The notes under the pieces are model-generated. The model made no database searches. It was not told the DNA's origin and saw only the letters and a list, made by a program, of their open reading frames with translations. From IMG/VR virus record IMGVR_UViG_2869970738_000002: a stretch of DNA of 10,901 nt; one strand, 5' to 3'. Source of the stretch: a virus (lineage: Duplodnaviria; Heunggongvirae; Uroviricota; Caudoviricetes). This document shows positions 1-10,542 of the stretch, piece after piece. A program made the position numbers and the translations under genes. The stretch's first letter is position 1. Every line of letters starts with the position of its first letter.

Positions 1-1119
1 TCAAATAACCAGCTTAACCCATTCCTGACCTCGAGTATCGTTATAGCGATCGGTGGTTGCCTGGACTTTATGTCCTAGTAATGTTTTTGTATCGATACCC
101 TGTGCACGGTACAGCCGTTCTGATAGAGAGCGTTGTTCATGAAATGTTGGCGGAGTTTTTCCTGCTGGTGGAATTATCCCAGCCAGATCCCGTGCTTTGG
201 CAAAGTAGTCGCTCAGGTTGTCTTTACTCATCGGCTTCGGTTGTTTCTGGTGCCGACTATGGATTAGATATGGACTTAATATTCTGTCTCGGCACCCATC
301 AATAACTTCTTTTAACGTTATCCCAATGGCATCACAGCGTAGTGTAAGCGGTAACGCCAGACGCATTCCGGTTTTTCCCTGGGTGATATGCAAGTGTTCG
401 TTCCACACATCTGAAAAACGCATGTGGCAAATGTCATCACGGCGCTGACCAGTAACAATCGCAAGAAGCATTGCGTTACGGATAAAGTGTTTTTCAGGCG
501 TTGCATTGTAAATTTTTTGCCAGTCTTCCATGGTGAGCCTGGCTCTGGTTACTTTAGGGATCGGTTTACGGGTAGCCTCCGGAGGATTCCATCCAGGAGG
601 AACTTCCCCTGCATGCTGTGCTTCTTTATAAATATCAACCCATAATCCACGATTTACTCTCGCTGTGCTGACCATGTCTTTATCCAGCCACTCATCCAGT
701 ATTAATGCAAAGTCTCTTACTTCCAGTTCTTTCAATGGGTGGTTTCCCAGACGGGAAACTAGGTATGCAGCCATTCGAGTTTTTTCTTTGTGAGTTGTAG
801 CTGCAATATCTCCATTTTTCAGTCGCGTGTCCTGTATTTTCAGATATCGATCAACCCATGCCTTTAATCTGATACCCCGACGTTTTGTTGCTGACGGACT
901 TTCATCAATTTTGCGCATGAAATATTCAGCTTCTGCTGCAGCTATTCGCTGATTGGCTGTGGAAGCGATTTTTTCTGCCTTACCTTTGTCTGTTCCGAGT
1001 CCGTGAAATTTTCCAGTCACAGGATTTTTATACTGGTAGTAAACTCTGCCAGTTCTGCGATCAAACTTTTCGTAAAGACCGGCTACGTCAGTGCTGTTTT
1101 TTTGTGGCCTCGGTGACAT
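1..1119 (-). CDS. int: Lambda-family tyrosine integrase (prophage Int), complete
   Basis: 372-aa ORF with ATG at 1119-1117 and TGA at 3-1. The C-terminal catalytic region (LLAIVTGQRRDD...PPTFHEQRSLSERLY...LLGH...TTDRYNDTRGQEW) aligns by eye with lambda Int (AVVTGQRVGDL...PPTFHELRSLSARLY...LLGH...QYRDDRGREW). The N-terminal YYQYKNPVTGKFHGLG resembles the lambda Int arm-binding region. Confidence 0.9.
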   Translation of the reverse strand: MSPRPQKNSTDVAGLYEKFDRRTGRVYYQYKNPVTGKFHGLGTDKGKAEKIASTANQRIAAAEAEYFMRKIDESPSATKRRGIRLKAWVDRYLKIQDTRLKNGDIAATTHKEKTRMAAYLVSRLGNHPLKELEVRDFALILDEWLDKDMVSTARVNRGLWVDIYKEAQHAGEVPPGWNPPEATRKPIPKVTRARLTMEDWQKIYNATPEKHFIRNAMLLAIVTGQRRDDICHMRFSDVWNEHLHITQGKTGMRLALPLTLRCDAIGITLKEVIDGCRDRILSPYLIHSRHQKQPKPMSKDNLSDYFAKARDLAGIIPPAGKTPPTFHEQRSLSERLYRAQGIDTKTLLGHKVQATTDRYNDTRGQEWVKLVI

Positions 1120-1335
1120 GAGTTAAAATCTCCTTCAGTGCATCATCATCGCCAGTATGAATTTCCGGCGCAATTCCCGTTTCACCAGGCCCAACAAATA
1201 CTGCTCGGCGATCTATCAGCCAACGCCCACGAATTTTTTGTGGTCTTGGAACGATGTATCCTAGTTTTCCGTATTTCACCAGGGTAGTGTTTGTTATTGG
1301 GAGACTGAACCGTTTTGGTTTCCACTCGTCGAGCG
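1088..1335 (-). pseudogene. Xis-like excisionase, 5'-truncated by IS1 insertion; 3' end overlaps int start
   Basis: The minus-strand frame gives ...LDEWKPKRFSLPITNTTLVKYGKLGYIVPRPQKIRGRWLIDRRAVFVG..., which resembles lambda Xis (LTLQEWNARQRRPRSLETVRRWVRECRIFPPPVKDGREYLF). The frame stops at 1088, overlapping the int ATG by about 32 nt as in lambda xis/int. The first 58 codons of the track ORF 1088..1510 are IS1 left-end sequence, and no native start codon remains. Confidence 0.5.
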
Positions 1336-1390
1336 GGTAATGCTGCCAACTTACTGATTTAGTGTATGATGGTGATTTTAAGGTGCTTGC

Positions 1391-1666
1391 GTGGTTTCCA
1401 TTTCCATCAGATGTCCTTCCTGCTCCGCGACTGAAGGCGTGGTGCGTAACGGCAAAAGCACTGCCGGACATCAGCGCTATCTCTGCTCTCATTGCCGTAA
1501 AACATGGCAACTACAGTTCACTTACACCGCCTCTCAGCCCGGTACGCACCAGAAAATCATTGATATGGCCATGAATGGCGTCGGATGTCGCGCCAGTGCA
1601 CGCATTATGGGCGTTGGCCTCAACACGGTTTTCCGTCACTTAAAAAACTCAGGCCGCAGTCGGTAA
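1391..1666 (+). CDS. insA: IS1 InsA (transposition inhibitor / N-terminal part of InsAB')
   Basis: 91-aa [46 protein letters not shown]..., highly similar to canonical IS1 InsA with its zinc-finger CxxC...CxxC motif. Confidence 0.9.
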
Positions 1667-2172
1667 CCTCGCGCATACAACCGGGCAGTGATGTGATTGT
1701 CTGCGCTGAAATGGACGAACAGTGGGGCTACGTCGGTGCTAAATCACGTCAGCGCTGGCTGTTTTACGCGTATGACAGGATACGGAGGACGGTTGCGGCG
1801 CACGTCTTCGGTGAACGCACTCTGGCCACACTGGAGCGTCTTCTGATCCTGCTGTCGGCCTTTGAGGTCGTGGTATGGATGACGGATGGCTGGCCGCTGT
1901 ATGAATCACGCCTGAAGGGAAAGCTGCACGTTATCAGCAAGCGTTACACTCAGCGCATTGAGCGACATAATCTGAATCTGAGACAACATCTGGCAAGGCT
2001 GGGACGGAAGTCACTGTCGTTCTCAAAATCGGTGGAGCTGCATGACAAGGTCATCGGGCATTATCTGAACATAAAACACTATCAGTGGATTTGCCCCTAT
2101 ATTTCCAGACATCTGTTATCACTTAACCCATTACAAGCCCGCTGCCGCAGATATTCCCGTGGCGAGCGATAA
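1585..2172 (+). CDS. insB: IS1 InsB frame, with a 28-aa C-terminal extension read into the inserted IS2
   Basis: The frame ...[58 protein letters not shown]...[12 protein letters not shown] matches InsB. The native TAA stop is displaced by the IS2 insertion after CACTATCAG, so the frame continues [11 protein letters not shown]... to 2172. Confidence 0.75.
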
Positions 2173-3002
2173 CCCAGCGCACTATGCGGATGCCATTCGT
2201 TATAATGTTCGAACGCCTCTGCAAGGTTCTTTGCTGCCGTTAACCCGTCTGGTTTGGGCATGATACTGATGTAGTCACGCTTTATCGTTTTCACGAAGCT
2301 CTCTGCTATTCCGTTACTCTCCGGACTCCGCACCGCCGTGTTCTTCGGTTCAAGTCCCAACATCCGGGCGAACTGGCGTGTTTCATTAGCCCGGTAGCAT
2401 GAACCATTATCCGTCAGCCACTCCACTGGAGACGACGGAAGATCGTTGCCGAAGCGGCGTTCCACCGCTCCCAGCATGACGTCCTGTACTGTTTCACTGT
2501 TGAAGCCGCCGGTAGTCACCGCCCAGTGCAGTGCCTCACGATCACAGCAGTCCAGCGCGAACGTGACACGCAGTCTCTCTCCGTTATCACAGCAGAACTC
2601 GAACCCGTCAGAGCACCATCGCTGATTGCTTTCTTTCACGGCCACTCTGCCTGTATGTGCCCGTTTCGATGGCGGTACAGCAGGTTTTCGCTCAAGCAAC
2701 AGCGCATTCTGGCGCATGATCCGGTAAACACGTTTGGCATTGATCGCAGGCATACCATCAAGTTCTGCCTGTCTGCGAAGCAGCGCCCATACCCGACGAT
2801 AACCATACGTGGGCAGCTCTCCGATAACATGGTGTATACGGAGAAGCACATCCGTATCATCAGTGTGACGACTGCGGCGGCCATCCATCCAGTCATCGGT
2901 TCGTCTGAGAATGACGTGCAACTGCGCACGCGACACCCGGAGACAACGGCTGACTAAGCTTACTCCCCATCCCCGGGCAATAAGGGCGCGTGCGCTATCC
3001 AC
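2097..3002 (-). CDS. insD: IS2 transposase InsD (OrfB)
   Basis: 301-aa [46 protein letters not shown]...; DDE-type IS3-family transposase lying inside the IS2 ends. Confidence 0.95.
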
Positions 3003-3325
3003 TTTTTTGCCCGTCCATATTCAACGGCTTCTTTGAGGAGTTCATTTTCCATCGTTTTCTTACCGAGCAGGCGCTGGAGTTCTTTAATCTGCTTCATGGC
3101 GGCAGCAAGTTCAGAGGCAGGAACAACCTGTTCTCCGGCGGCCACAGCAGTAAGACTTCCTTCCTGGTATTGCTTACGCCAGAGAAATAACTGGCTGGCT
3201 GCTACACCATGTTGCCGGGCAACGAGGGAGACCGTCATCCCCGGTTCAAAGCTCTGCTGAACAATTGCGATCTTTTCCTGTGTGGTACGCCGTCTGCGTT
3301 TCTCCGGTCCTAAGACATCAATCAT
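2960..3325 (-). CDS. insC: IS2 InsC (OrfA; helix-turn-helix regulator / N-terminal part of the InsCD fusion)
   Basis: Within track ORF 2960..3370 the protein starting [56 protein letters not shown] is 121 aa. It overlaps insD, as expected for a -1 frameshift pair. Confidence 0.9.
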
Positions 3326-3439
3326 CTGTACTCCAATGACTAGTCTAAAAACTAGTATTAAGACTATCACTTATTTAAGTGATACTGGTTGTCTGGAGAT
3401 TCAGGGGGCCAGTCTAATCAGTAAGTTGGAGTCATTACC

Positions 3440-4457
3440 CGCCGACTGCCTGGAATTTATCTGGTCGTTACCCGAAAATTCTGTTGACCTGATAGTCACG
3501 GACCCGCCGTACTTTAAAGTGAAGCCTGAGGGCTGGGATAACCAGTGGAAGGGCGACGATGATTACCTGAAGTGGCTGGACCAGTGTCTGGCGCAGTTCT
3601 GGCGGGTGCTGAAACCTGCCGGAAGTCTTTACCTGTTCTGTGGTCATCGCCTGGCATCTGATATCGAAATCATGATGCGTGAACGCTTCAGTGTGCTGAA
3701 CCATATTATCTGGGCGAAGCCGTCCGGACGCTGGAACGGATGCAACAAGGAAAGCCTGCGGGCGTATTTCCCCGCCACAGAGCGCATTCTGTTCGCGGAA
3801 CATTATCAGGGGCCGTATCGTCCGAAAGATGCCGGGTATGCGGCGAAGGGCAGTGCACTGAAACAGCATGTGATGGCCCCGCTGATTTCTTACTTTCGTG
3901 ATGCGCGAGCTGCCCTGGGGATAACGGCAAAACAGATTGCAGATGCCACAGGAAAGAAAAACATGGTGTCGCACTGGTTCAGTGCCAGTCAGTGGCAGTT
4001 GCCGAATGAAAGCGATTATCTGAAATTACAGGCGCTGTTTGCCCGGGTGGCAGAAGAGAAGCATCGGCGTGGTGAACTGGAAAAGCTCCACCACCAGCTG
4101 GTGGATACGTATACCTCACTGAACCGGCAGTATGCGGAGCTGCTGAGTGAATATAAACATCTGCGGCGGTATTTTGGCGTGACGGTGCAGGTGCCGTATA
4201 CCGATGTGTGGACGCATAAACCGGTGCAGTTCTATCCCGGGAAACATCCGTGCGAAAAACCGGCAGAAATGCTGCAGCAGATAATCAGCGCTAGCAGTCG
4301 TCCGGGTGACCTGATTGCAGATTTTTTCATGGGGTCGGGTTCGACAGTGAAAGCGGCACTGGCGCTCGGGCGTCGTGCAATTGGCGTTGAGCTGGAGACT
4401 GAACGTTTTGAGCAGACGGTTCGGGAAGTACAGGATTTAGTCAGCCAGAACGGATGA
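3440..4457 (+). CDS. Orphan DNA methyltransferase (N6-adenine/N4-cytosine class, beta-type motif order), 5' end replaced by IS1/IS2 sequence
   Basis: Motif IV DPPY (SVDLIVTDPPYF) lies near the N-terminus and motif I FxGxG (DFFMGSGST) near the C-terminus. The track ORF 3282..4457 starts at a GTG inside IS2, and native sequence begins at the IS1 boundary (3440) at ...ADCLEF. No restriction endonuclease gene is adjacent. Confidence 0.75.
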
Positions 4458-4459
4458 TA

Positions 4460-4488
4460 TTGAAGAATTAATTACGAGTCGTTATTAT
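4460..4488 (+). promoter_or_regulatory. Sigma70-like promoter immediately upstream of the tRNA cluster
   Basis: TTGAAG (4460-4465), a 17-bp spacer, then TATTAT (4483-4488); the first tRNA starts at 4498. Confidence 0.4.
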
Positions 4489-4497
4489 GCGGCTCCC

Positions 4498-4573
4498 GGC
4501 CCTTTAGCTCAGTGGTGAGAGCGAGCGACTCATAATCGCCAGGTCGCTGGTTCAAATCCAGCAAGGGCCACCA
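4498..4573 (+). tRNA. ileZ: tRNA with anticodon CAU (Ile2 lysidine-type or Met; ileZ-like of lambdoid phages)
   Basis: 76-nt cloverleaf folded by hand: acceptor GGCCCTT/AAGGGCC, D-arm GCTC...GAGC, anticodon loop CTCATAA, T-arm GCTGG-TTCAAAT-CCAGC, 3' ACCA. Confidence 0.85.
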
Positions 4574-4580
4574 TCACATA

Positions 4581-4657
4581 CCGCCATTAGCTCATCAGGA
4601 AAGAGCGCCAGCCTTCGAAGCTGGCTGCGCGGGGTTCAAGTCCCCGATGGCGGTCCA
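4581..4657 (+). tRNA. argN: tRNA-Arg (anticodon UCG; argN-like)
   Basis: 77-nt cloverleaf: acceptor CCGCCAT/ATGGCGG (unusual C1-G72 pair), anticodon stem CCAGC/GCTGG with loop CTTCGAA, T-arm CGGGG-TTCAAGT-CCCCG, 3' TCCA. Confidence 0.8.
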
Positions 4658-4670
4658 TTATCTGCATCAT

Positions 4671-4747
4671 GCGTTGTTAGCTCAGCCGGACAGAGCAATT
4701 GCCTTCTAAGCAATCGGTCACTGGTTCGAATCCAGTACAACGCGCCA
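4671..4747 (+). tRNA. argO: tRNA-Arg (anticodon UCU; argO-like)
   Basis: 77-nt cloverleaf: acceptor GCGTTGT/ACAACGC, anticodon stem ATTGC/GCAAT with loop CTTCTAA, T-arm ACTGG-TTCGAAT-CCAGT, 3' GCCA. Confidence 0.85.
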
Positions 4748-4762
4748 CACTTATTTTCCCTG

Positions 4763-4787
4763 GCTCGCTTTTGCGGGCTTTTTTTTT
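4763..4787 (+). terminator. Rho-independent terminator after the tRNA cluster
   Basis: Stem GCTCGC / GCGGGC with a TTTT loop, followed by a run of nine T (4779-4787). Confidence 0.6.
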
Positions 4788-5013
4788 AAATGTCTCACAA
4801 TTCAGACGGTTGACTGTTGTCTGGTTTGCGGGGAGTTTGTTAAAAGAAACTGGCATGGTGAATCCCCCTGTGCGGAGGGGCAATCAGCGAGTAGGTATAT
4901 GGGATAATCGCGGATTCAGGTGCTGGTACTGAATTCACCGGGAGGCACCCGGCACCATGCAATGGCACATAGCGCCACTCTCCAGCCCCTCTCCGGAGGG
5001 GCTTTCTTGTGGG

Positions 5014-5043
5014 CAAAAAAAGCCCGCGCTGGGAGACGCGGGC
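5014..5043 (-). terminator. Minus-strand Rho-independent terminator with no annotated upstream gene
   Basis: On the minus strand GCCCGCG-TCTCCCAG-CGCGGGC (7-bp GC stem) is followed by TTTTTTT; the plus strand shows AAAAAAA 5014-5020 before the hairpin 5022-5043. Confidence 0.55.
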
Positions 5044-5236
5044 GGCAAGGAATAAACAACAAAACGTGAAGTAATATTTCAGCTGGCGAATAATACCCCA
5101 TAGTAATCACTCTGCGCAACTGCGCGGTCTTTTTCGAATTGCGGGCTGTCGTCTCTCTTCTGCCATTGTCCTGTAACTTCCGGACTTCAGCCCGCTCCTC
5201 ATTTTACTCACAATATTATCCCGGCCGGGAGGATTC

Positions 5237-6625
5237 ATGGCTTTTAAACACTATGATGTTGTCAGGGCGGCGTCGCCGTCAGATCTTGCGGAAAAGCTGA
5301 CACATAAACTGAAAGAGGGCTGGCAGCCGTTTGGTAGTCCGGTGGCCATAACCCCTTATACTCTGATGCAGGCGATTGCAGCAGAAGGTGCAGTAATCAG
5401 CGCCACCAGCGACCCGGAGTATTACTTTGTTGTGGTTCTGGCAGGGCAGTCAAACGGCATGTCGTATGGTGAAGGCCTTCCGCTGCCGGGGACATATGAC
5501 CGTCCGGACCCGCGTATTAAGCAACTGGCGCGTCGCAGTACGGTGACACCGGGCGGTGCAGCATGCAAATATAACGACATCATTCCGGCGGACCATTGTC
5601 TGCATGATGTGCAGGACATGAGCCGTCTTAACCATCCGAAAGCGGACCTGTCAAAGGGGCAGTACGGAACCGTGGGGCAGGGGCTGCATATCGCCAAAAA
5701 ACTGCTGCCGTTTATACCGGCGAATGCGGGCATTCTGCTGGTTCCATGCTGTCGTGGTGGTTCAGCGTTCACCACCGGAGCTGATGGCACATACAGTGAC
5801 GCGAGTGGTGCCTCGGAGAATTCAACCCGCTGGGGTGTGGACAAGCCGCTGTATAAGGACCTTATCGGTCGAACAAAAGCGGCACTGGAGAAGAACCCGA
5901 AAAATGTGCTGTTTGCCGTGGTGTGGATGCAGGGGGAATTTGATTTTGGCGGTACGCCGGCAAATCATGCCGCACAGTTTGGTGCGCTGGTTGATAAATT
6001 CCGTGCAGACCTGGCGGATATGGCAGGCCAGTGCGTCGGTGGCTCTGCTGGCGGTGTTCCCTGGATATGCGGGGACACGACGTATTTCTGGAAGCAGAAG
6101 AACGAATCCACGTACCAGACGGTGTACGGCAGCTATAAAAATAAAACGGAAAAGAATATCCATTTCGTACCGTTCATGACCGATGAGAACGGGGTGAATG
6201 TGCCGACGAACAAACCGGAAGAAGACCCGGACATTCCGGGTATCGGTTATTACGGTTCGAAATGGCGTGACAGCTCAGCCACCTGGACGTCACAGGACAG
6301 GGCGAGCCATTTCAGTTCATGGGCTCGCCGTGGGATTATTTCCGACCGTCTGGCAACGGCGATTCTGAGCTGCGCGGGTAAGTCTTCTGCGTTTGTTAAT
6401 GGTACTGCCGGGGTGGTTGTTCCAGACAGGCCGGTTACCACCTCAGAGTCTGTAATTTTTTACGATGCCAAAAAAGCTACAGACAATCAGCTGAAACCTT
6501 ATGGCTGGGACGGTATGTATGGCAGACGCACACTGGTTGATGACAGCGGCAATAAAGCTCTGCGAATTGAGAAAAATAACAGCTCGAAATCTTGGTCAAT
6601 GTACTGTGAGGTGTACTGGCAATAG
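5237..6625 (+). CDS. Prophage NanS-p-like sialate O-acetylesterase (DUF1737-like N-terminus plus SASA/SGNH GQSN domain); 3' end fused to IS600, probably C-terminally truncated
   Basis: ATG at 5237 preceded by GGGAGG. Protein has the motif VVLAGQSNGMSYGEG and an N-terminal MAFKHYDVVRA...LKEGWQPFGSP module. Sits directly downstream of the ileZ-argN-argO tRNAs, as nanS-p does in lambdoid and Stx prophages. The last 19 nt (6607-6625), including the stop, lie inside the IS600 terminal repeat. Confidence 0.75.
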   Translation: MAFKHYDVVRAASPSDLAEKLTHKLKEGWQPFGSPVAITPYTLMQAIAAEGAVISATSDPEYYFVVVLAGQSNGMSYGEGLPLPGTYDRPDPRIKQLARRSTVTPGGAACKYNDIIPADHCLHDVQDMSRLNHPKADLSKGQYGTVGQGLHIAKKLLPFIPANAGILLVPCCRGGSAFTTGADGTYSDASGASENSTRWGVDKPLYKDLIGRTKAALEKNPKNVLFAVVWMQGEFDFGGTPANHAAQFGALVDKFRADLADMAGQCVGGSAGGVPWICGDTTYFWKQKNESTYQTVYGSYKNKTEKNIHFVPFMTDENGVNVPTNKPEEDPDIPGIGYYGSKWRDSSATWTSQDRASHFSSWARRGIISDRLATAILSCAGKSSAFVNGTAGVVVPDRPVTTSESVIFYDAKKATDNQLKPYGWDGMYGRRTLVDDSGNKALRIEKNNSSKSWSMYCEVYWQ

Positions 6626-6649
6626 CGGACACTACCATTTGTTCTTTTT

Positions 6650-7468
6650 TTAAGCAGCCATCTGATGATATTTTTCCCTGAAGGCTGCCGGGGAGATATT
6701 CCCCAGACGAGAGTGACGACGCTGACGATTGTAGAAAATCTCAATGTATTCCCGTATTACTGAGATGGCTTCATCCCGGTTATTAAAACGATAGTGGCTC
6801 AGGCTCTCATTTTTCAGCGTTCCCCAGAAGCTTTCCATCGGAGCGTTGTCGTAACAGTGACCTTTACGCGACATTGATGTTTTCAGACCAGACTGCTCCT
6901 GTATGACCCGGTAATCGTATGCGCAGTACTGTGAACCTCGATCAGAGTGGTGGATTAGCCCGGCAGGTGGGCGCTGGCTCCTGAGCGCCATAAACAGGGC
7001 TTTACCTGTCAGCTCTTTTGTCATGCGCTCTCCCATGGCGTAGCCGACAATTTCGCACGTATAAACATCTTTGATGCCAGCGAGGTACAACCATCCCTCC
7101 TGTGTGGCAACATACGTCAGGTCCGCCACCCAGACCTGATTTGGTGCTGTAGGAGCGAACGTCTGGTTCAGCAGATTTGGCGCAACTGGCAGATTGTGGT
7201 TCGGGTTCGTAGTCGCTCTGAACTTGCGTTTCTGCTTACAGCGTAGCCTTAGCTCCTTACGAAGACGTGCCAGTCGGTCACGACCAACGATGATGCCATT
7301 CTCTGCCAGCTCCGTCTGGAGCCGCCGGGTTCCATATGTTTCGCGAGTGCGGATATGTGCCACCTTAATCTCCAGTTTTAGCCGCTCATCACTTTGTTTT
7401 CTGTCTGAGGGTTCATGCTGTACCCAGTTGTAATAACCGCTCCTGGATACACCAAATACCTGACACAT
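6650..7468 (-). CDS. IS600-like OrfB (DDE transposase catalytic subunit; expressed as an OrfAB fusion by -1 frameshift)
   Basis: 272-aa ORF with IS3-family DDE transposase features (...WVADLTYV...HHSDRGSQY...). The orfB frame is open upstream through the orfA stop, with a CTGAAAAAT slippery-like run near 7511-7519. Confidence 0.9.
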   Translation of the reverse strand: MCQVFGVSRSGYYNWVQHEPSDRKQSDERLKLEIKVAHIRTRETYGTRRLQTELAENGIIVGRDRLARLRKELRLRCKQKRKFRATTNPNHNLPVAPNLLNQTFAPTAPNQVWVADLTYVATQEGWLYLAGIKDVYTCEIVGYAMGERMTKELTGKALFMALRSQRPPAGLIHHSDRGSQYCAYDYRVIQEQSGLKTSMSRKGHCYDNAPMESFWGTLKNESLSHYRFNNRDEAISVIREYIEIFYNRQRRHSRLGNISPAAFREKYHQMAA

Positions 7469-7503
7469 CGCTTCAATGGGAAATTGTTGTCGCCATTGTT
7501 CGA

Positions 7504-7806
7504 TTAACGCGTATTTTTCAGCGACTCCTGTGCAAAATACGCTGTTGCTTTTTTTAATATATCTCGCTCAAGGCGAGCTTCATTTAACGCCTTACGCAGT
7601 TGCAGAATTTCAGATTCCAGTTCAGCCACCGTGCGGGAACCAGGAGTACCGAGCCCTTTTCTGGCGGCGGTAACCCATTGTCCTAAAGTGCCTTCAGGAA
7701 GGGATAATCGGGAAGCGCCTTCACTGATCGAAAGTTGATTTTCAAGAACCGTTCTGACAGCTTCGGCTTTGAACTCTTTAGAGTAACGTTGGTTTTTTCT
7801 GCTCAT
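7504..7806 (-). CDS. IS600-like OrfA (helix-turn-helix transposase subunit)
   Basis: 100-aa ORF MSRKNQRYSKEFKAEAVRTVLENQLSISEGASRLSLPEGTLGQWVTAARKG...; identical protein encoded at 10599-10901. Confidence 0.9.
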   Translation of the reverse strand: MSRKNQRYSKEFKAEAVRTVLENQLSISEGASRLSLPEGTLGQWVTAARKGLGTPGSRTVAELESEILQLRKALNEARLERDILKKATAYFAQESLKNTR

Positions 7807-7870
7807 TATTAGCTCCTTCTGATGCCATTCTATTTCAGGAAGGAGTGTCCGTTAAACTCAGGCTACCTCA

Positions 7871-8359
7871 TATGTCGGGCGCTCATCCGGTATAAGGGAT
7901 CGCGTTCTTAATATCAATGAAACCGCTGATGTATGGTCTTATGCTTACGGTAATAATTTGCTAACTCTGTCATCAATATATAACCGAAGAATAATGGTTA
8001 TCTGCCTGGTGTTTGGTTGCCGACAGCAGGAGGCGAGGCTATCCACCTGGGACGAATGGGATTTAAAAAACTGGGTATGGACAGTCCCAAAAGAGCACAG
8101 CAAAAACAAGGAGGCTATAGTAAGGCCTGTTCCTGACGGAATAAAACAATGGATCGTTAATCTTTACGCAGAAACAAAAAATCGCGGTTATGTTGTCGGT
8201 TGTGCTTTGCAAAGGGCGACAATAACAGGGGCTGCAAACAGAATATGCAGGCGTCTTGGTCATGATACTAATGGCTTGTGGTGCATACATGATTTCAGGC
8301 GCACATTTTCCACTACGCTTAATGATATGGGGGCGGATCCTTATATTGTCGAACTTCTT
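7871..8359 (+). pseudogene. Internal fragment of a second, different tyrosine integrase, truncated at both ends by IS600 and IS1
   Basis: Frame is open from the IS600 boundary to the IS1 boundary. Encodes ...ICLVFGCRQQEARLSTWDEWDLKNWVWTVP...HDFRRTFSTTLNDMGADPYIVELLG, corresponding to the Int catalytic core (compare lambda AVVTGQRVGDLCEMKWSD...HELRSLSARLY...LLGH). The fragment ends before the LLGH histidine and the catalytic Tyr. Confidence 0.7.
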
Positions 8360-8414
8360 GGTGATGCTGCCAACTTACTGATTTAGTGTATGATGGTGTT
8401 TTTGAGGTGCTCCA

Positions 8415-8690
8415 GTGGCTTCTGTTTCTATCAGCTGTCCCTCCTGTTCAGCTACTGACGGGGTGGTGCGTAACGGCAAAAGCACTGCCGGACATCAGCG
8501 CTATCTCTGCTCTCACTGCCGTAAAACATGGCAACTGCAGTTCACTTACACCGCTTCTCAACCCGGTACGCACCAGAAAATTATTGATATGGCCATGAAT
8601 GGCGTTGGATGCCGGGCAACTGCACGCATTATGGGCGTTAGCCTCAACACGATTTTACGTCACTTAAAAAACTCAGGCCGCAGTCGGTAA
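8415..8690 (+). CDS. insA: IS1 InsA
   Basis: 91-aa [46 protein letters not shown]... Confidence 0.95.
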
Positions 8691-8734
8691 CCTCGCGCAT
8701 ACAGCCGGGCAGTGACGTCATCGTCTGCGCGGAA

Positions 8735-9112
8735 ATGGACGAACAGTGGGGATACGTCGGGGCTAAATCGCGCCAGCGCTGGCTGTTTTACGCGTATGAC
8801 AGGCTCCGGAAGACGGTTGTTGCGCACGTATTCGGTGAACGCACTATGGCGACGCTGGGGCGTCTTATGAGCTTGCTGTCACCCTTTGACGTGGTGATAT
8901 GGATGACGGATGGCTGGCCACTGTATGAATCCCGCCTGAAGGGAAAGCTGCACGTAATCAGCAAGCGATATACGCAGCGAATTGAGCGGCATAACCTGAA
9001 TCTGAGGCAGCACCTGGCACGGCTGGGACGGAAGTCGCTGTCGTTCTCAAAATCGGTGGAGCTGCATGACAAAGTCATCGGGCATTATCTGAACATAAAA
9101 CACTATCAATAA
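8735..9112 (+). CDS. insB: IS1 InsB frame (C-terminal part of the InsAB' transposase; the true product arises by -1 frameshift at 8664-8672)
   Basis: Track [95 protein letters not shown]...HYQ. A TAG at 8639-8641 in this frame lies upstream of the frameshift site and does not affect the fusion product. Confidence 0.85.
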
Positions 9113-9127
9113 GTTGGAGTCATTACC

Positions 9128-9521
9128 GGCGTTGCAGATGCTTGATGATGATGAAAAGGGAGTAAATTTAACTTACACCCCAGGAGGAAATCAGAATATG
9201 AGAATTATCTCTGAGTCAGGTTTCTACAAACTAATAGCCCGCAGCCGCAAAGCAACGACGCCTGGCACATTTGCTCATCGTTTCAGTAACTGGGTATTCA
9301 GAAATGTGATACCAGGTATCAGAAAAACGGGGACTTATGGTATCCCGTGGGGTGCATTACAGGATTTTTCCCGCCGTAAAGAGCAATATCAAATAAGTGC
9401 CAGCGAGAAGGGGAGGGAGCTACAGGCATGTAAGCGCAAAAAGCGTGAGCAGGAGGAAGAAGAAAAAACGCTGATACGTGAATATCAGCCTGAGTTTTAC
9501 TTTGGTAACCGCATTCAGTGA
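9128..9521 (+). pseudogene. Bro-N domain (phage antirepressor-like) protein, N-terminally truncated by IS1
   Basis: Native sequence begins at the IS1 boundary: ...LDDDEKGVNLTYTPGGNQNMRIISESGFYKLIARSRKATTPGTFAHRFSNWVFRNVIPGIRKTGTYG matches the conserved C-terminal half of Bro-N domains (pattern LDDDEKGV...IISE.GLY.L..RSRK...F..WV...V.P.IRK.G.Y). The first 5 codons of track ORF 9114..9521 are IS1-derived. Confidence 0.6.
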
Positions 9522-9551
9522 CAAAACAAAGGCGACCGCAAAAGGGTCGCC
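9521..9551 (-). terminator. Rho-independent terminator for the minus-strand two-gene operon, convergent with the Bro-N fragment
   Basis: Hairpin GGCGACC-GCAAAAG-GGTCGCC (9531-9551); on the minus strand it is followed by TTTGTTTTGT (plus ACAAAACAAA, 9521-9530). Confidence 0.5.
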
Positions 9552-9617
9552 AGTGGGAACAAGGGAAAACAAAAGCATCACCAACAATGCCACATTTGCG
9601 GCTGGTGGGCAATGTGA

Positions 9618-9797
9618 TCAGTCAGATTTGGTTCGTTCCAAGGTTTGCAACGAGAGCTTTTTCCTGTGCTCTTTAAGGAATTTCTCAAGAGCAAACGAAC
9701 AAGGTGCGAATCTTTCTGATTCATGTTCATGCGCTATATTTTTGCGTCGTCTCTTACGAGTTGGTGATGGTGTTTTGGTTGATTCTGTGTCGCTCAT
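9618..9797 (-). CDS. Hypothetical 59-aa highly basic protein, not in the supplied ORF track; second gene of the minus-strand operon
   Basis: Hand translation of the minus strand: ATG at 9797-9795, MSDTESTKTPSPTRKRRRKNIAHEHESERFAPCSFALEKFLKEHRKKLSLQTLERTKSD, TGA at 9620-9618. AGGA lies about 8 nt upstream of the ATG. It starts 57 nt after the stop of the 101-aa gene and ends 67 nt before the terminator. Contains AGA x2, CGA x2, AGG and ATA codons. Confidence 0.35.
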   Translation of the reverse strand: MSDTESTKTPSPTRKRRRKNIAHEHESERFAPCSFALEKFLKEHRKKLSLQTLERTKSD

Positions 9798-9854
9798 GGT
9801 GCTGTCCTGTAAAGCAATGCGCCTGCGTTCCTCAAACTATGGCGCTGATATTGG

Positions 9855-10160
9855 CTATTCATGCTCTTTGACCTTGCGTCGCTGGAGTTCTTCACGCGCG
9901 ACGGTGACGAGTTGCCCGATCTCCTCGGCTGCTTTGATGCCGATTTGTTCGACCTTAGCCAGGGCATCCAGTGACGACACAAGGGGATTTTCTCCGCTGC
10001 CTTCTGCTTGGCGGCGGGCCATTTCTCCGCGCATGGCGGTTACGATAAATCCGGCATTGCTTTCACCGTCCAGCTTAACGGATTCCATCCCTTGCATAAC
10101 ATCTAGTGGGACTCTGACAGTTGTCAGTTGTGATTTTGCGTTTTTGTTAGCCGTTGCCAT
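9855..10160 (-). CDS. Hypothetical 101-aa protein with an Arc/Mnt/CopG-like ribbon-helix-helix N-terminus (putative DNA-binding regulator)
   Basis: ATG at 10160-10158 with AGGAG 8 nt upstream. The N-terminus LTTVRVPLDVMQGMESVKLDGESNAGFIVTAMRGEMARR fits the RHH pattern of beta-strand, helix, G-x-S-x-N turn, helix (compare Arc ...FNLRWPREVLDLVRKVAEENGRSVNSEIYQRVMESF). The C-terminal half is predicted helical and charged. Confidence 0.55.
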   Translation of the reverse strand: MATANKNAKSQLTTVRVPLDVMQGMESVKLDGESNAGFIVTAMRGEMARRQAEGSGENPLVSSLDALAKVEQIGIKAAEEIGQLVTVAREELQRRKVKEHE

Positions 10161-10180
10161 TTCTGAAACTCCTAATCATC

Positions 10181-10260
10181 GGTGTGTTTCAGTATACACA
10201 AAAAAAGAAATACAAAAAGCCTTGACGTGTGTTTCATGCGCTCATAACATGAAACACACC
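10181..10260. promoter_or_regulatory. Divergent promoter region with three copies of GTGTGTTTCA (two direct, one inverted), a putative operator array
   Basis: GTGTGTTTCA at 10182-10191 and 10227-10236, with the inverted copy TGAAACACAC at 10250-10259. Copies 2 and 3 form a perfect 12-bp inverted repeat (10227-10238 / 10248-10259, 9-bp spacer) overlapping a plus-strand promoter TTGACG (10222-10227), 17 bp, TAACAT (10245-10250). Copy 1 lies between a minus-strand TATACT -10-like element and the RHH gene RBS. Confidence 0.4.
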
Positions 10261-10350
10261 GAAAGGATTGTTGAAATACAAAGAGCAACGCCCCGCAGTG
10301 CTGGGAACACATACGGGGCGTCTAACCAACAACGTAAACTAGGAGCCGTT

Positions 10351-10542
10351 ATGGTTGCTGTAAATCATATACCACACCTTGTACACACACAAACGGCCTT
10401 TGTGTGGCGTTTTCTGGCACTGAGTGCCGGAGAATCTCAAATCATCCACGTAACCGCCTGGACGGAACGCGAAGCGCGTAGCCGTTGCCCGTCCGGTTGT
10501 GTTGCTGTATTCGCTGCAAAAATCCGCCAGGGAGTGAGGTAG
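10351..10542 (+). CDS. Hypothetical small protein, divergent from the RHH gene; 3' end runs into IS600, probably truncated
   Basis: ATG at 10351 with AGGAG 5 nt upstream (10341-10345): MVAVNHIPHLVHTQTAFVWRFLALSAGESQIIHVTAWTEREARSRCPSGCVAVFAAKIRQG.... The last codons and the stop (10540-10542) are inside the IS600 left end, which begins at 10535. It is the 3' part of the long track ORF 9478..10542, whose upstream portion I consider non-coding. Confidence 0.35.
   Translation: MVAVNHIPHLVHTQTAFVWRFLALSAGESQIIHVTAWTEREARSRCPSGCVAVFAAKIRQGVR

Follow-up and report, generated by a model that had tools for sequence, protein, structure and literature searches.

A probable IS1-associated deletion of the interior of a lambdoid prophage next to potC in Shigella boydii

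The insertion sequence (IS) IS1 promotes adjacent deletions, of which IS1 in gal and IS1/Tn9, reportedly described by Reif and Saedler in 1975, are classical examples. Reviews place IS1/Tn9 among the elements that typically give such deletions, after which the surviving element is without direct repeats (PMC9330008, section 5.2.1; PMC11708052), and deletion and rearrangement driven by IS elements are the well-described way in which Shigella genomes decay (PMC7373316; PMC8072062). Here we describe a 10,901-nucleotide stretch of DNA recorded as viral (Caudoviricetes; IMG/VR record IMGVR_UViG_2869970738_000002), referred to as the window and numbered from its first letter, in which a copy of IS1, itself interrupted by IS2, joins a truncated excisionase gene (xis) to a truncated DNA methyltransferase gene. 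This junction shares with the IS1-promoted adjacent deletions an element that stays in place, a deletion that starts from its exact tip and a survivor without direct repeats; it differs in that the transposase route is inferred here and may have taken more than one step. As in the wider decay of Shigella genomes, IS1, IS2 and IS600 lie at pseudogene or rearrangement junctions in the window, where three of the four complete IS copies have no target duplication, and the locus is no different in kind, being one instance of a general process. The closest described prophages are the intact lambdoid prophages at potC of Escherichia coli FDAARGOS_536 (NZ_CP033762.1) and of E. coli O104:H4 2009EL-2071 (NC_018661.1), which have the integration site in common with the window, int-xis sequences 99.8% identical to it and the same order, int-xis ... 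Q-methyltransferase-tRNA trio-esterase. The window differs from them in lacking a 16-17-kb interior and everything beyond the esterase gene, and its methyltransferase module is just 96-97% identical to theirs.

The methyltransferase also has described counterparts. M.EcoGI and M.EcoGII (PMC5778455), which are non-specific adenine methyltransferases encoded by prophages in E. coli O104:H4, share with it the beta-class order of DPPY, target-recognition domain and FxGxG and the location of the gene on a lambdoid prophage, where intact relatives of the window gene encode 349 amino acids. The window copy differs from M.EcoGII in being without the first 14 residues, its own start and its upstream region, and the likeness runs through the gene of phage 1720a-02, whose methyltransferase has been named very similar to M.EcoGII (PMC5778455), and not through a direct comparison.

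The junction consists of one iso-IS1 on the + strand that lies in two parts. Nucleotides 1-750 of the element, comprising the left inverted repeat, insA and insB without its stop codon, occupy positions 1336..2085, while the final 18 nucleotides, the outer part of the right inverted repeat, lie at 3422..3439, cut off from the rest by a 1331-bp IS2 on the - strand (2086..3416). The first base of IS1 is 1336 (GGTAATGCTGCC..., also read as GGTAATGCTGCCAACTTACTG...) and its last is 3439 (...GGAGTCATTACC), and the element is exactly 768 bp long once IS2 and one ATCAG are taken out. It therefore has the length (about 768 bp) and the terminal inverted repeats (about 23 bp, found here as inverted repeat I3) of the IS1 family, together with the Pfam domains Zn_ribbon_InsA, HTH_Tnp_IS1 and DDE_Tnp_IS1 and a match to NCBIfam transpos_IS1 at 143 bits against a cut-off of 100. 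The element is about 90% identical to a second copy in the window, IS1 #2, and 99.3% identical to a copy present as a simple insertion in a sister genome. IS2 sits 18 bp from the right tip of IS1, with its left inverted repeat (IRL, the orfA side) facing the methyltransferase; it has the features of an IS3-family element, namely its length of 1331 bp, imperfect terminal repeats (inverted repeat I2), orfA and orfB on the - strand (NCBIfam IS2 TnpA at 276 bits and TnpB at 728 bits, both above cut-off) and a duplication of 5 bp (ATCAG, present at 2081-2085 and again at 3417-3421). The insB stop codon has been replaced by IS2 sequence, and the insB reading frame continues for 28 codons into IS2.

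On the left, IS1 abuts an excisionase remnant (xis', 1088..1335, - strand) that is without its first 22 nucleotides, that is, seven codons plus one nucleotide, and without all of its upstream sequence. The loss was judged against the 89-amino-acid gene as it stands in phage vB_EcoS-640R1 and in E. coli FDAARGOS_536: the window aligns to the vB_EcoS-640R1 gene through CGTCGAGCG and then changes to IS1, and the missing part comprises the codons for MSEQYLI and the first base of the next codon. The remnant matches the PHROG excisionase family phrog_629 (E value 1.7e-23), with the profile alignment beginning at position 7 for xis' and at position 2 for the intact gene, and had no Pfam or NCBIfam match in library scans; its counterparts in relatives are annotated as excisionase. 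It overlaps by 32 nucleotides the 5' end of a complete lambda-type integrase gene (1..1119, - strand; 372 amino acids; Pfam Arm-DNA-bind_1 and Phage_integrase), which forms the prophage end adjoining potC. E. coli potC prophages have an int that is 99.8% identical to this gene, and Shigella assemblies encode the exact protein next to potC/potD.

On the right, IS1 abuts a gene for a beta-class DNA N6-adenine methyltransferase of the M.EcoGI/M.EcoGII family (3440..4457, + strand; Pfam N6_N4_Mtase, PF01555, at 149 bits), which is without its first 41 nucleotides, corresponding to the 14 residues MLNTVKISSCELIN, these having been replaced by IS1. Here the methylase genes compared came from an Stx2 phage and an E. 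coli prophage, and the match begins at CGCCGACTG. Over 335 residues the window copy is 96-97% identical in amino acid sequence to the intact 349-amino-acid relatives in E. coli potC prophages (96% to the 349-amino-acid enzyme of the O104:H4 prophage), and the closest phage match is phage 1720a-02 (94.7% nucleotide identity). The catalytic DPPY and FxGxG (FMGSGS) motifs are kept, and the protein matches the structures of RsrI and other beta-class enzymes.

The 9 bp on either side of IS1 are CGTCGAGCG on the left (1327..1335) and CGCCGACTG on the right (3440..3448), so that the 8-9-bp target duplication of IS1 is absent at this junction. The two 9-mers match at six of nine positions (chance P about 0.01), and a degenerate duplication was considered and ruled out, because each 9-mer is native to its own gene, xis or methyltransferase, in intact relatives. 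That a duplication is lacking carries meaning, since elsewhere in sister genomes this IS1 variant has made normal 8-9-bp duplications, two extra copies there being flanked by GAAAATCT and GTATGGTCT; the lack is the mark of a later rearrangement and not evidence against the identity of the element as IS1. The truncation of both genes and the unduplicated flanks had been pointed out in the preliminary description of this DNA, and the alignments to intact relatives bear out both observations. We also noted that the three bases beyond each end of IS1 are reverse-complementary (GCG at 1333-1335, CGC at 3440-3442) and lengthen inverted repeat I3 by 3 bp, which is probably a matter of chance (1 in 64).

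In order to find what once lay between the two genes, we compared the window with intact prophages. The same int-xis occurs in 1,635 E. coli genomes, in 1,211 of them at 99% identity or more. In FDAARGOS_536 the intact prophage adjoins potC, and window positions 1-1335 align to positions 2470-3804 of that locus (L013) at 99.85% identity while positions 3440-5003 align to 20557-22120 at 96.6%, both on the + strand and similarly oriented; the two blocks are separated by 16,752 bp (NZ_CP033762.1 620304-637055). This order recurs in E. coli O104:H4 2009EL-2071, in whose potC prophage approximately 16.2 kb separate the breakpoints. The flanks of the window junction are thus collinear and in the same orientation in both prophages, as is expected of an IS-associated deletion. 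The interval in FDAARGOS_536 contains an exonuclease gene (exo), dicB, relBE, cI/cro-like immunity regulators, replication genes, hokD, rusA and a Q-type antiterminator, and 15 Shigella loci, read over about 30 kb around the junction, contain no part of this 16.75-kb interval. The immunity and replication regions had been named as the missing cargo before any relative was consulted, and both do fall within the interval. The accompanying proposal that xis and the methyltransferase gene normally lie tens of kb apart holds for their separation and not for the distance, which is 16-17 kb (about 16.2-16.8); in no relative are the two genes neighbours. We conclude that an IS1-associated deletion of the prophage interior in situ is very probable, taking together the routes by which it could have come about.

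An origin of the two flanks in different lambdoid prophages or at distant sites was weighed against this comparison. In that case each would have carried an IS1, and an IS1 by IS1 inversion or translocation would have brought the potC int-xis stump together with a methyltransferase-tRNA-nanS module from a second prophage, and the interior would have been relocated and not deleted. The unequal identities of the flanks would fit, with the left at 99.85% to E. coli potC prophages and the right at no more than 96.6-96.8% to any E. coli genome, and methyltransferase-tRNA modules are found at up to 16 places per E. coli genome. Large IS-mediated rearrangements have also affected this locus, as seen in the IS600 join to the che operon and in the IS600-flanked segment that is inverted in CP026762, and high rates of rearrangement are documented for Shigella (PMC8072062). 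However, both flanks have precisely the arrangement, in order and in orientation, that a single intact prophage shows, unequal identity between modules is normal in mosaic lambdoid prophages, no interior sequence is found within about 30 kb around the junction, and more events would be needed than for a simple deletion. We regard such an origin as decidedly unlikely, and in-situ deletion remains our preferred account.

Two routes could have produced an in-situ deletion. The preliminary description had favored an adjacent deletion made by IS1; the association of the deletion with IS1 is supported by the collinearity described above, while the adjacent deletion itself turns out to be one of two routes that leave the same scar. 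We give about an even chance to a deletion made by the IS1 transposase, possibly in several steps and from either or both ends of the element. In such a sequence of events an iso-IS1 would first have inserted into the prophage, and its transposase would then have carried out at least one intramolecular transposition (replicative, cointegrate-type), deleting adjoining DNA and fusing the IS1 ends to new targets. This would have left IS1 abutting codon 8 of xis and codon 14 of the methyltransferase gene, with some 16-17 kb, from exo through Q, gone and with no target duplication. IS2 would have inserted later, 18 bp from the right tip of IS1 and with its normal 5-bp duplication, splitting the right inverted repeat and removing the insB stop codon. 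This order would follow if the deletion involved the right end of IS1. As the terminal repeats are required by IS1, the junction copy has probably been immobilized by IS2.

An internal control for an adjacent deletion exists within the window. IS1 #2, a copy of the standard type (8360..9127, + strand), is flanked by a perfect 9-bp duplication, GAACTTCTT, in six sister genomes (L005, L006, L007, L009, L010 and L011). In the window and in the nearly identical assembly PTES01000002.1, the right copy of this duplication and about 660 bp beside it are missing from the exact tip of the element; this interval holds an AlpA-like gene and a 46-amino-acid open reading frame (ORF) and contains no second IS1. 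IS1 #2 is therefore a documented textbook adjacent deletion whose precursor is preserved in sister genomes.

The other route is RecA-dependent homologous recombination between two directly oriented iso-IS1 copies of the same prophage, one in xis and one in the methyltransferase gene, which would have excised the 16-17 kb and left a hybrid IS1 carrying half of each duplication. The scar that it predicts is the one observed, without a duplication and with each flank native to its own gene, and recombination between ISs is a frequent cause of missing duplications (PMC11708052). IS1 is abundant and active in the lineage, with further copies bearing duplications within a few kb in sister genomes. 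An IS1 in CP026866 (L007, 18584-19351 in window orientation) is a clean mosaic, its first approximately 300 nucleotides being of the IS1 #2 type (one difference) and the rest of the GGTAATGC variant, the type found at the junction; it is flanked by the 9-bp duplication GTATGGTCT and, judged from its sequence, is evidence of recombination or conversion between IS1 iso-forms in this lineage. Independent simple insertions of IS1 in the int/xis/exo region of related E. coli prophages show this region to be a repeated target. On the other side, the recombination route calls for one variant to have inserted twice, independently and in like orientation, into one prophage, and neither single insertion was found in the genome collections given below. 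The junction IS1 is not a mosaic when compared with the simple-insertion copy of its variant (five scattered differences in 768 nucleotides), although this would be expected as well if both parents had been of the same type. We rate recombination between two IS1 copies as a real possibility, though a somewhat less likely one.

Several points weigh against a deletion made by the IS1 transposase within one prophage. No precursor, meaning a prophage intact except for an IS1 and its matching duplication at one or the other breakpoint, was found among 5,426 complete genomes of E. coli, the species representatives of GTDB and the Joint Genome Institute (JGI) metagenomes, collections with hardly any Shigella in them. 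The queries joined the right end of IS1 to CGTCGAGCG and the 5' end of xis, and the 5' end of the methyltransferase gene to CGCCGACTG and the left end of IS1. Recombination between two IS1 copies would leave an identical scar, and the mosaic element in a sister genome shows IS1 copies recombining; because the final sequence is the same in both cases, only precursors can decide between the routes. Both flanking 9-mers are G+C-rich, compared with three A+T-rich IS1 duplications in the lineage, which makes for a mildly atypical choice of target. Finally, the right chromosomal anchor (attR/potB) has been lost to a rearrangement at IS600, and for want of it the origin of both flanks in one prophage falls short of proof.

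The precursor searches did return E. coli places covering 71-100% of a synthetic precursor query (TW10598, HCP6S3_I2 and isolateI), which were rejected as independent IS1 insertions at other positions. The sites are in xis itself, in the stretch separating xis from exo, and in int itself, in related prophages (TW10598, L014; HCP6S3_I2, L016; isolateI, L017), and the int-xis-exo corner of these prophages is thus one that IS1 has struck repeatedly.

The junction is present in S. boydii CDC 3083-94 (CP001063), in S. boydii 600657, clade 2 (CP049281), and in at least seven further assemblies, and the arrangement int - IS1::IS2 - methyltransferase was carried by nine of the ten places returned for the integrase protein, so that it is old enough to be shared across a Shigella lineage. 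PTES01000002.1 matches the whole window at 99.97%, and the junctions are absent from the 5,426 complete E. coli genomes. On sequence grounds, the window is the left stump of a lambdoid prophage adjoining potC in a Shigella boydii-type chromosome. The tenth place, PUGO01000793.1 (L003, 9691-11119), keeps the xis/IS1 junction and is rearranged beyond it, the IS1 breaking off 94 nucleotides in from its left end, at a join with an IS66 fragment and the nrdAB region. The components of the locus (IS1, IS2, IS600, a potC lambdoid prophage and an M.EcoGI/II-type methyltransferase) are all already known, and the finding is real but ordinary; it offers a clean, datable case of the stepwise erosion of a prophage by IS1, IS2 and IS600 in S. 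boydii, and the junction could serve as a lineage marker, with little significance otherwise.

It was of interest whether the junction has made a new, expressed methyltransferase, in the form of an N-terminal fusion derived from the ISs or of a transcript driven by IS1 or IS2, with which the remnant would modify the genome of its host. Such expression had been suggested in the preliminary description, which also has the gene losing its native start and beginning in IS-derived sequence at a GTG or TTG. This last part is correct by alignment and by the list of ORFs: the methyltransferase frame is open upstream through the tip of IS1 into IS2, with an in-frame GTG at 3282, ATG at 3336 and TTG at 3426. 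The ORF is unbroken in all Shigella loci examined, where gene callers give products of 352-391 amino acids; the DPPY and FMGSGS motifs are retained; and read-through from a promoter-like site of IS1 insA at 1343-1370 is conceivable. The suggestion of expression itself found no support. A consensus scan of the + strand from 1971 to 4460 came up with no promoter-like site, and reading of the sequence gave no Shine-Dalgarno-like sequence 5-13 nucleotides upstream of any of the three start codons. It is the IRL of IS2 that adjoins the methyltransferase gene, and IS3-family elements such as IS2 have their outward -35 hexamer at the other end, in the right inverted repeat (IRR; PMC9330008). When the intact protein was used as the query, residues 8-14 (SSCELIN), which are among those lost, aligned with SGIELHN of the closest solved homologue, 9c3u, and the deletion has therefore taken away a conserved N-terminal segment. 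M.EcoGI and M.EcoGII both go unexpressed in normal growth, being silent in lysogens, and clones expressing them constitutively are slow-growing and unstable (PMC5778455).

Changes private to the Shigella methyltransferase comprise six non-synonymous (R22W, Q223R, P230L, Q249L, A263V and V306I) and six synonymous ones; the pairwise ratio of non-synonymous to synonymous substitution rates (dN/dS) is 0.05-0.18 over the methyltransferase gene set and 0.05-0.13 among three intact copies. This hints at relaxed constraint, from numbers too small for proof and with no near-identical intact allele by which to polarize the changes (the best E. coli match being 96.8%). Taking both sides together, we consider a new expressed enzyme to be very unlikely. 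It is more improbable still that small amounts of a methyltransferase with a rebuilt N terminus are produced, for instance through transcription continuing from the insA promoter across IS2 and from an IS-derived start, and that the enzyme is active and places sparse, motif-free adenine methylation on DNA or RNA in S. boydii strains, with effects on gene expression or phage resistance. Only if a truncated M.EcoGII-like enzyme were active would there be a biological consequence worth following. M.EcoGII methylates adenine in any context (PMC5778455), and the methylome readout to be expected is therefore motif-free N6-methyladenine and not the extra sequence motif that had been proposed. Both truncated genes, xis and methyltransferase, have most probably become inert remains, and the two ORFs would be better annotated here as truncated pseudogenes than as a 352-391-amino-acid 'DNA methylase'.

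Downstream of the methyltransferase gene three prophage tRNA genes follow (4498..4747, + strand; ARAGORN and Rfam), with the anticodons CAU (ileZ type), Arg-UCG and Arg-UCU, which keep the place and the order that they have in intact relatives. ARAGORN calls the CAU tRNA as Met, while the RefSeq relatives annotate it as tRNA-Ile (ileZ type). The trio keeps a promoter-like site at 4460-4488 and a terminator-like hairpin at 4762-4779, and it is possible to speculate that tRNAs for rare codons might be the reason for the retention of this piece of the prophage. A strong match to the small RNA family STnc100 lies between the trio and the esterase gene (4824-5014, + strand; Rfam 139 bits against a gathering score of 47). 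The last prophage-derived sequence is a nanS-p-type sialate O-acetylesterase gene (5237..6606, + strand; Pfam DUF1737 and SASA), whose 3' end is cut by IS600, so that its 462-amino-acid ORF ends inside the element. The possibility that stx or iraM had dropped out between the tRNA genes and the esterase was considered and ruled out, as positions 3440-5236 match several E. coli genomes as one collinear block.

The right boundary of the prophage remnant is this IS600 (6607..7870, - strand; 1264 bp; inverted repeat I1), which has no 3-bp duplication (CTG/TAT) and, from its flanks, appears as another rearrangement junction. About 4.5 kb of the prophage survives, and the right arm, with the lysis and structural genes and attR, is absent. 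The supposition that the deletion locked the remnant in place through the loss of Xis is therefore right as to xis, which has lost its start and the DNA upstream, and over-determined as an explanation, because the lysis, structural and attR side is missing as well. When the right-side anchor potB/attR was looked for (loci L018-L021), the chromosome was found to run through IS600 into cheA-cheW-tar-tap-cheR-cheB-cheY-cheZ and not into potB/potA; by this arrangement of genes, a large rearrangement has brought the pot region up against the che region. Between two inverted copies of IS600, positions 7871-10534 of the window (a P4-like integrase fragment, IS1 #2, a Bro-N gene and others) have the opposite orientation in CP026762 (L008/L022), which has the appearance of an IS600-mediated inversion that is polymorphic among strains.

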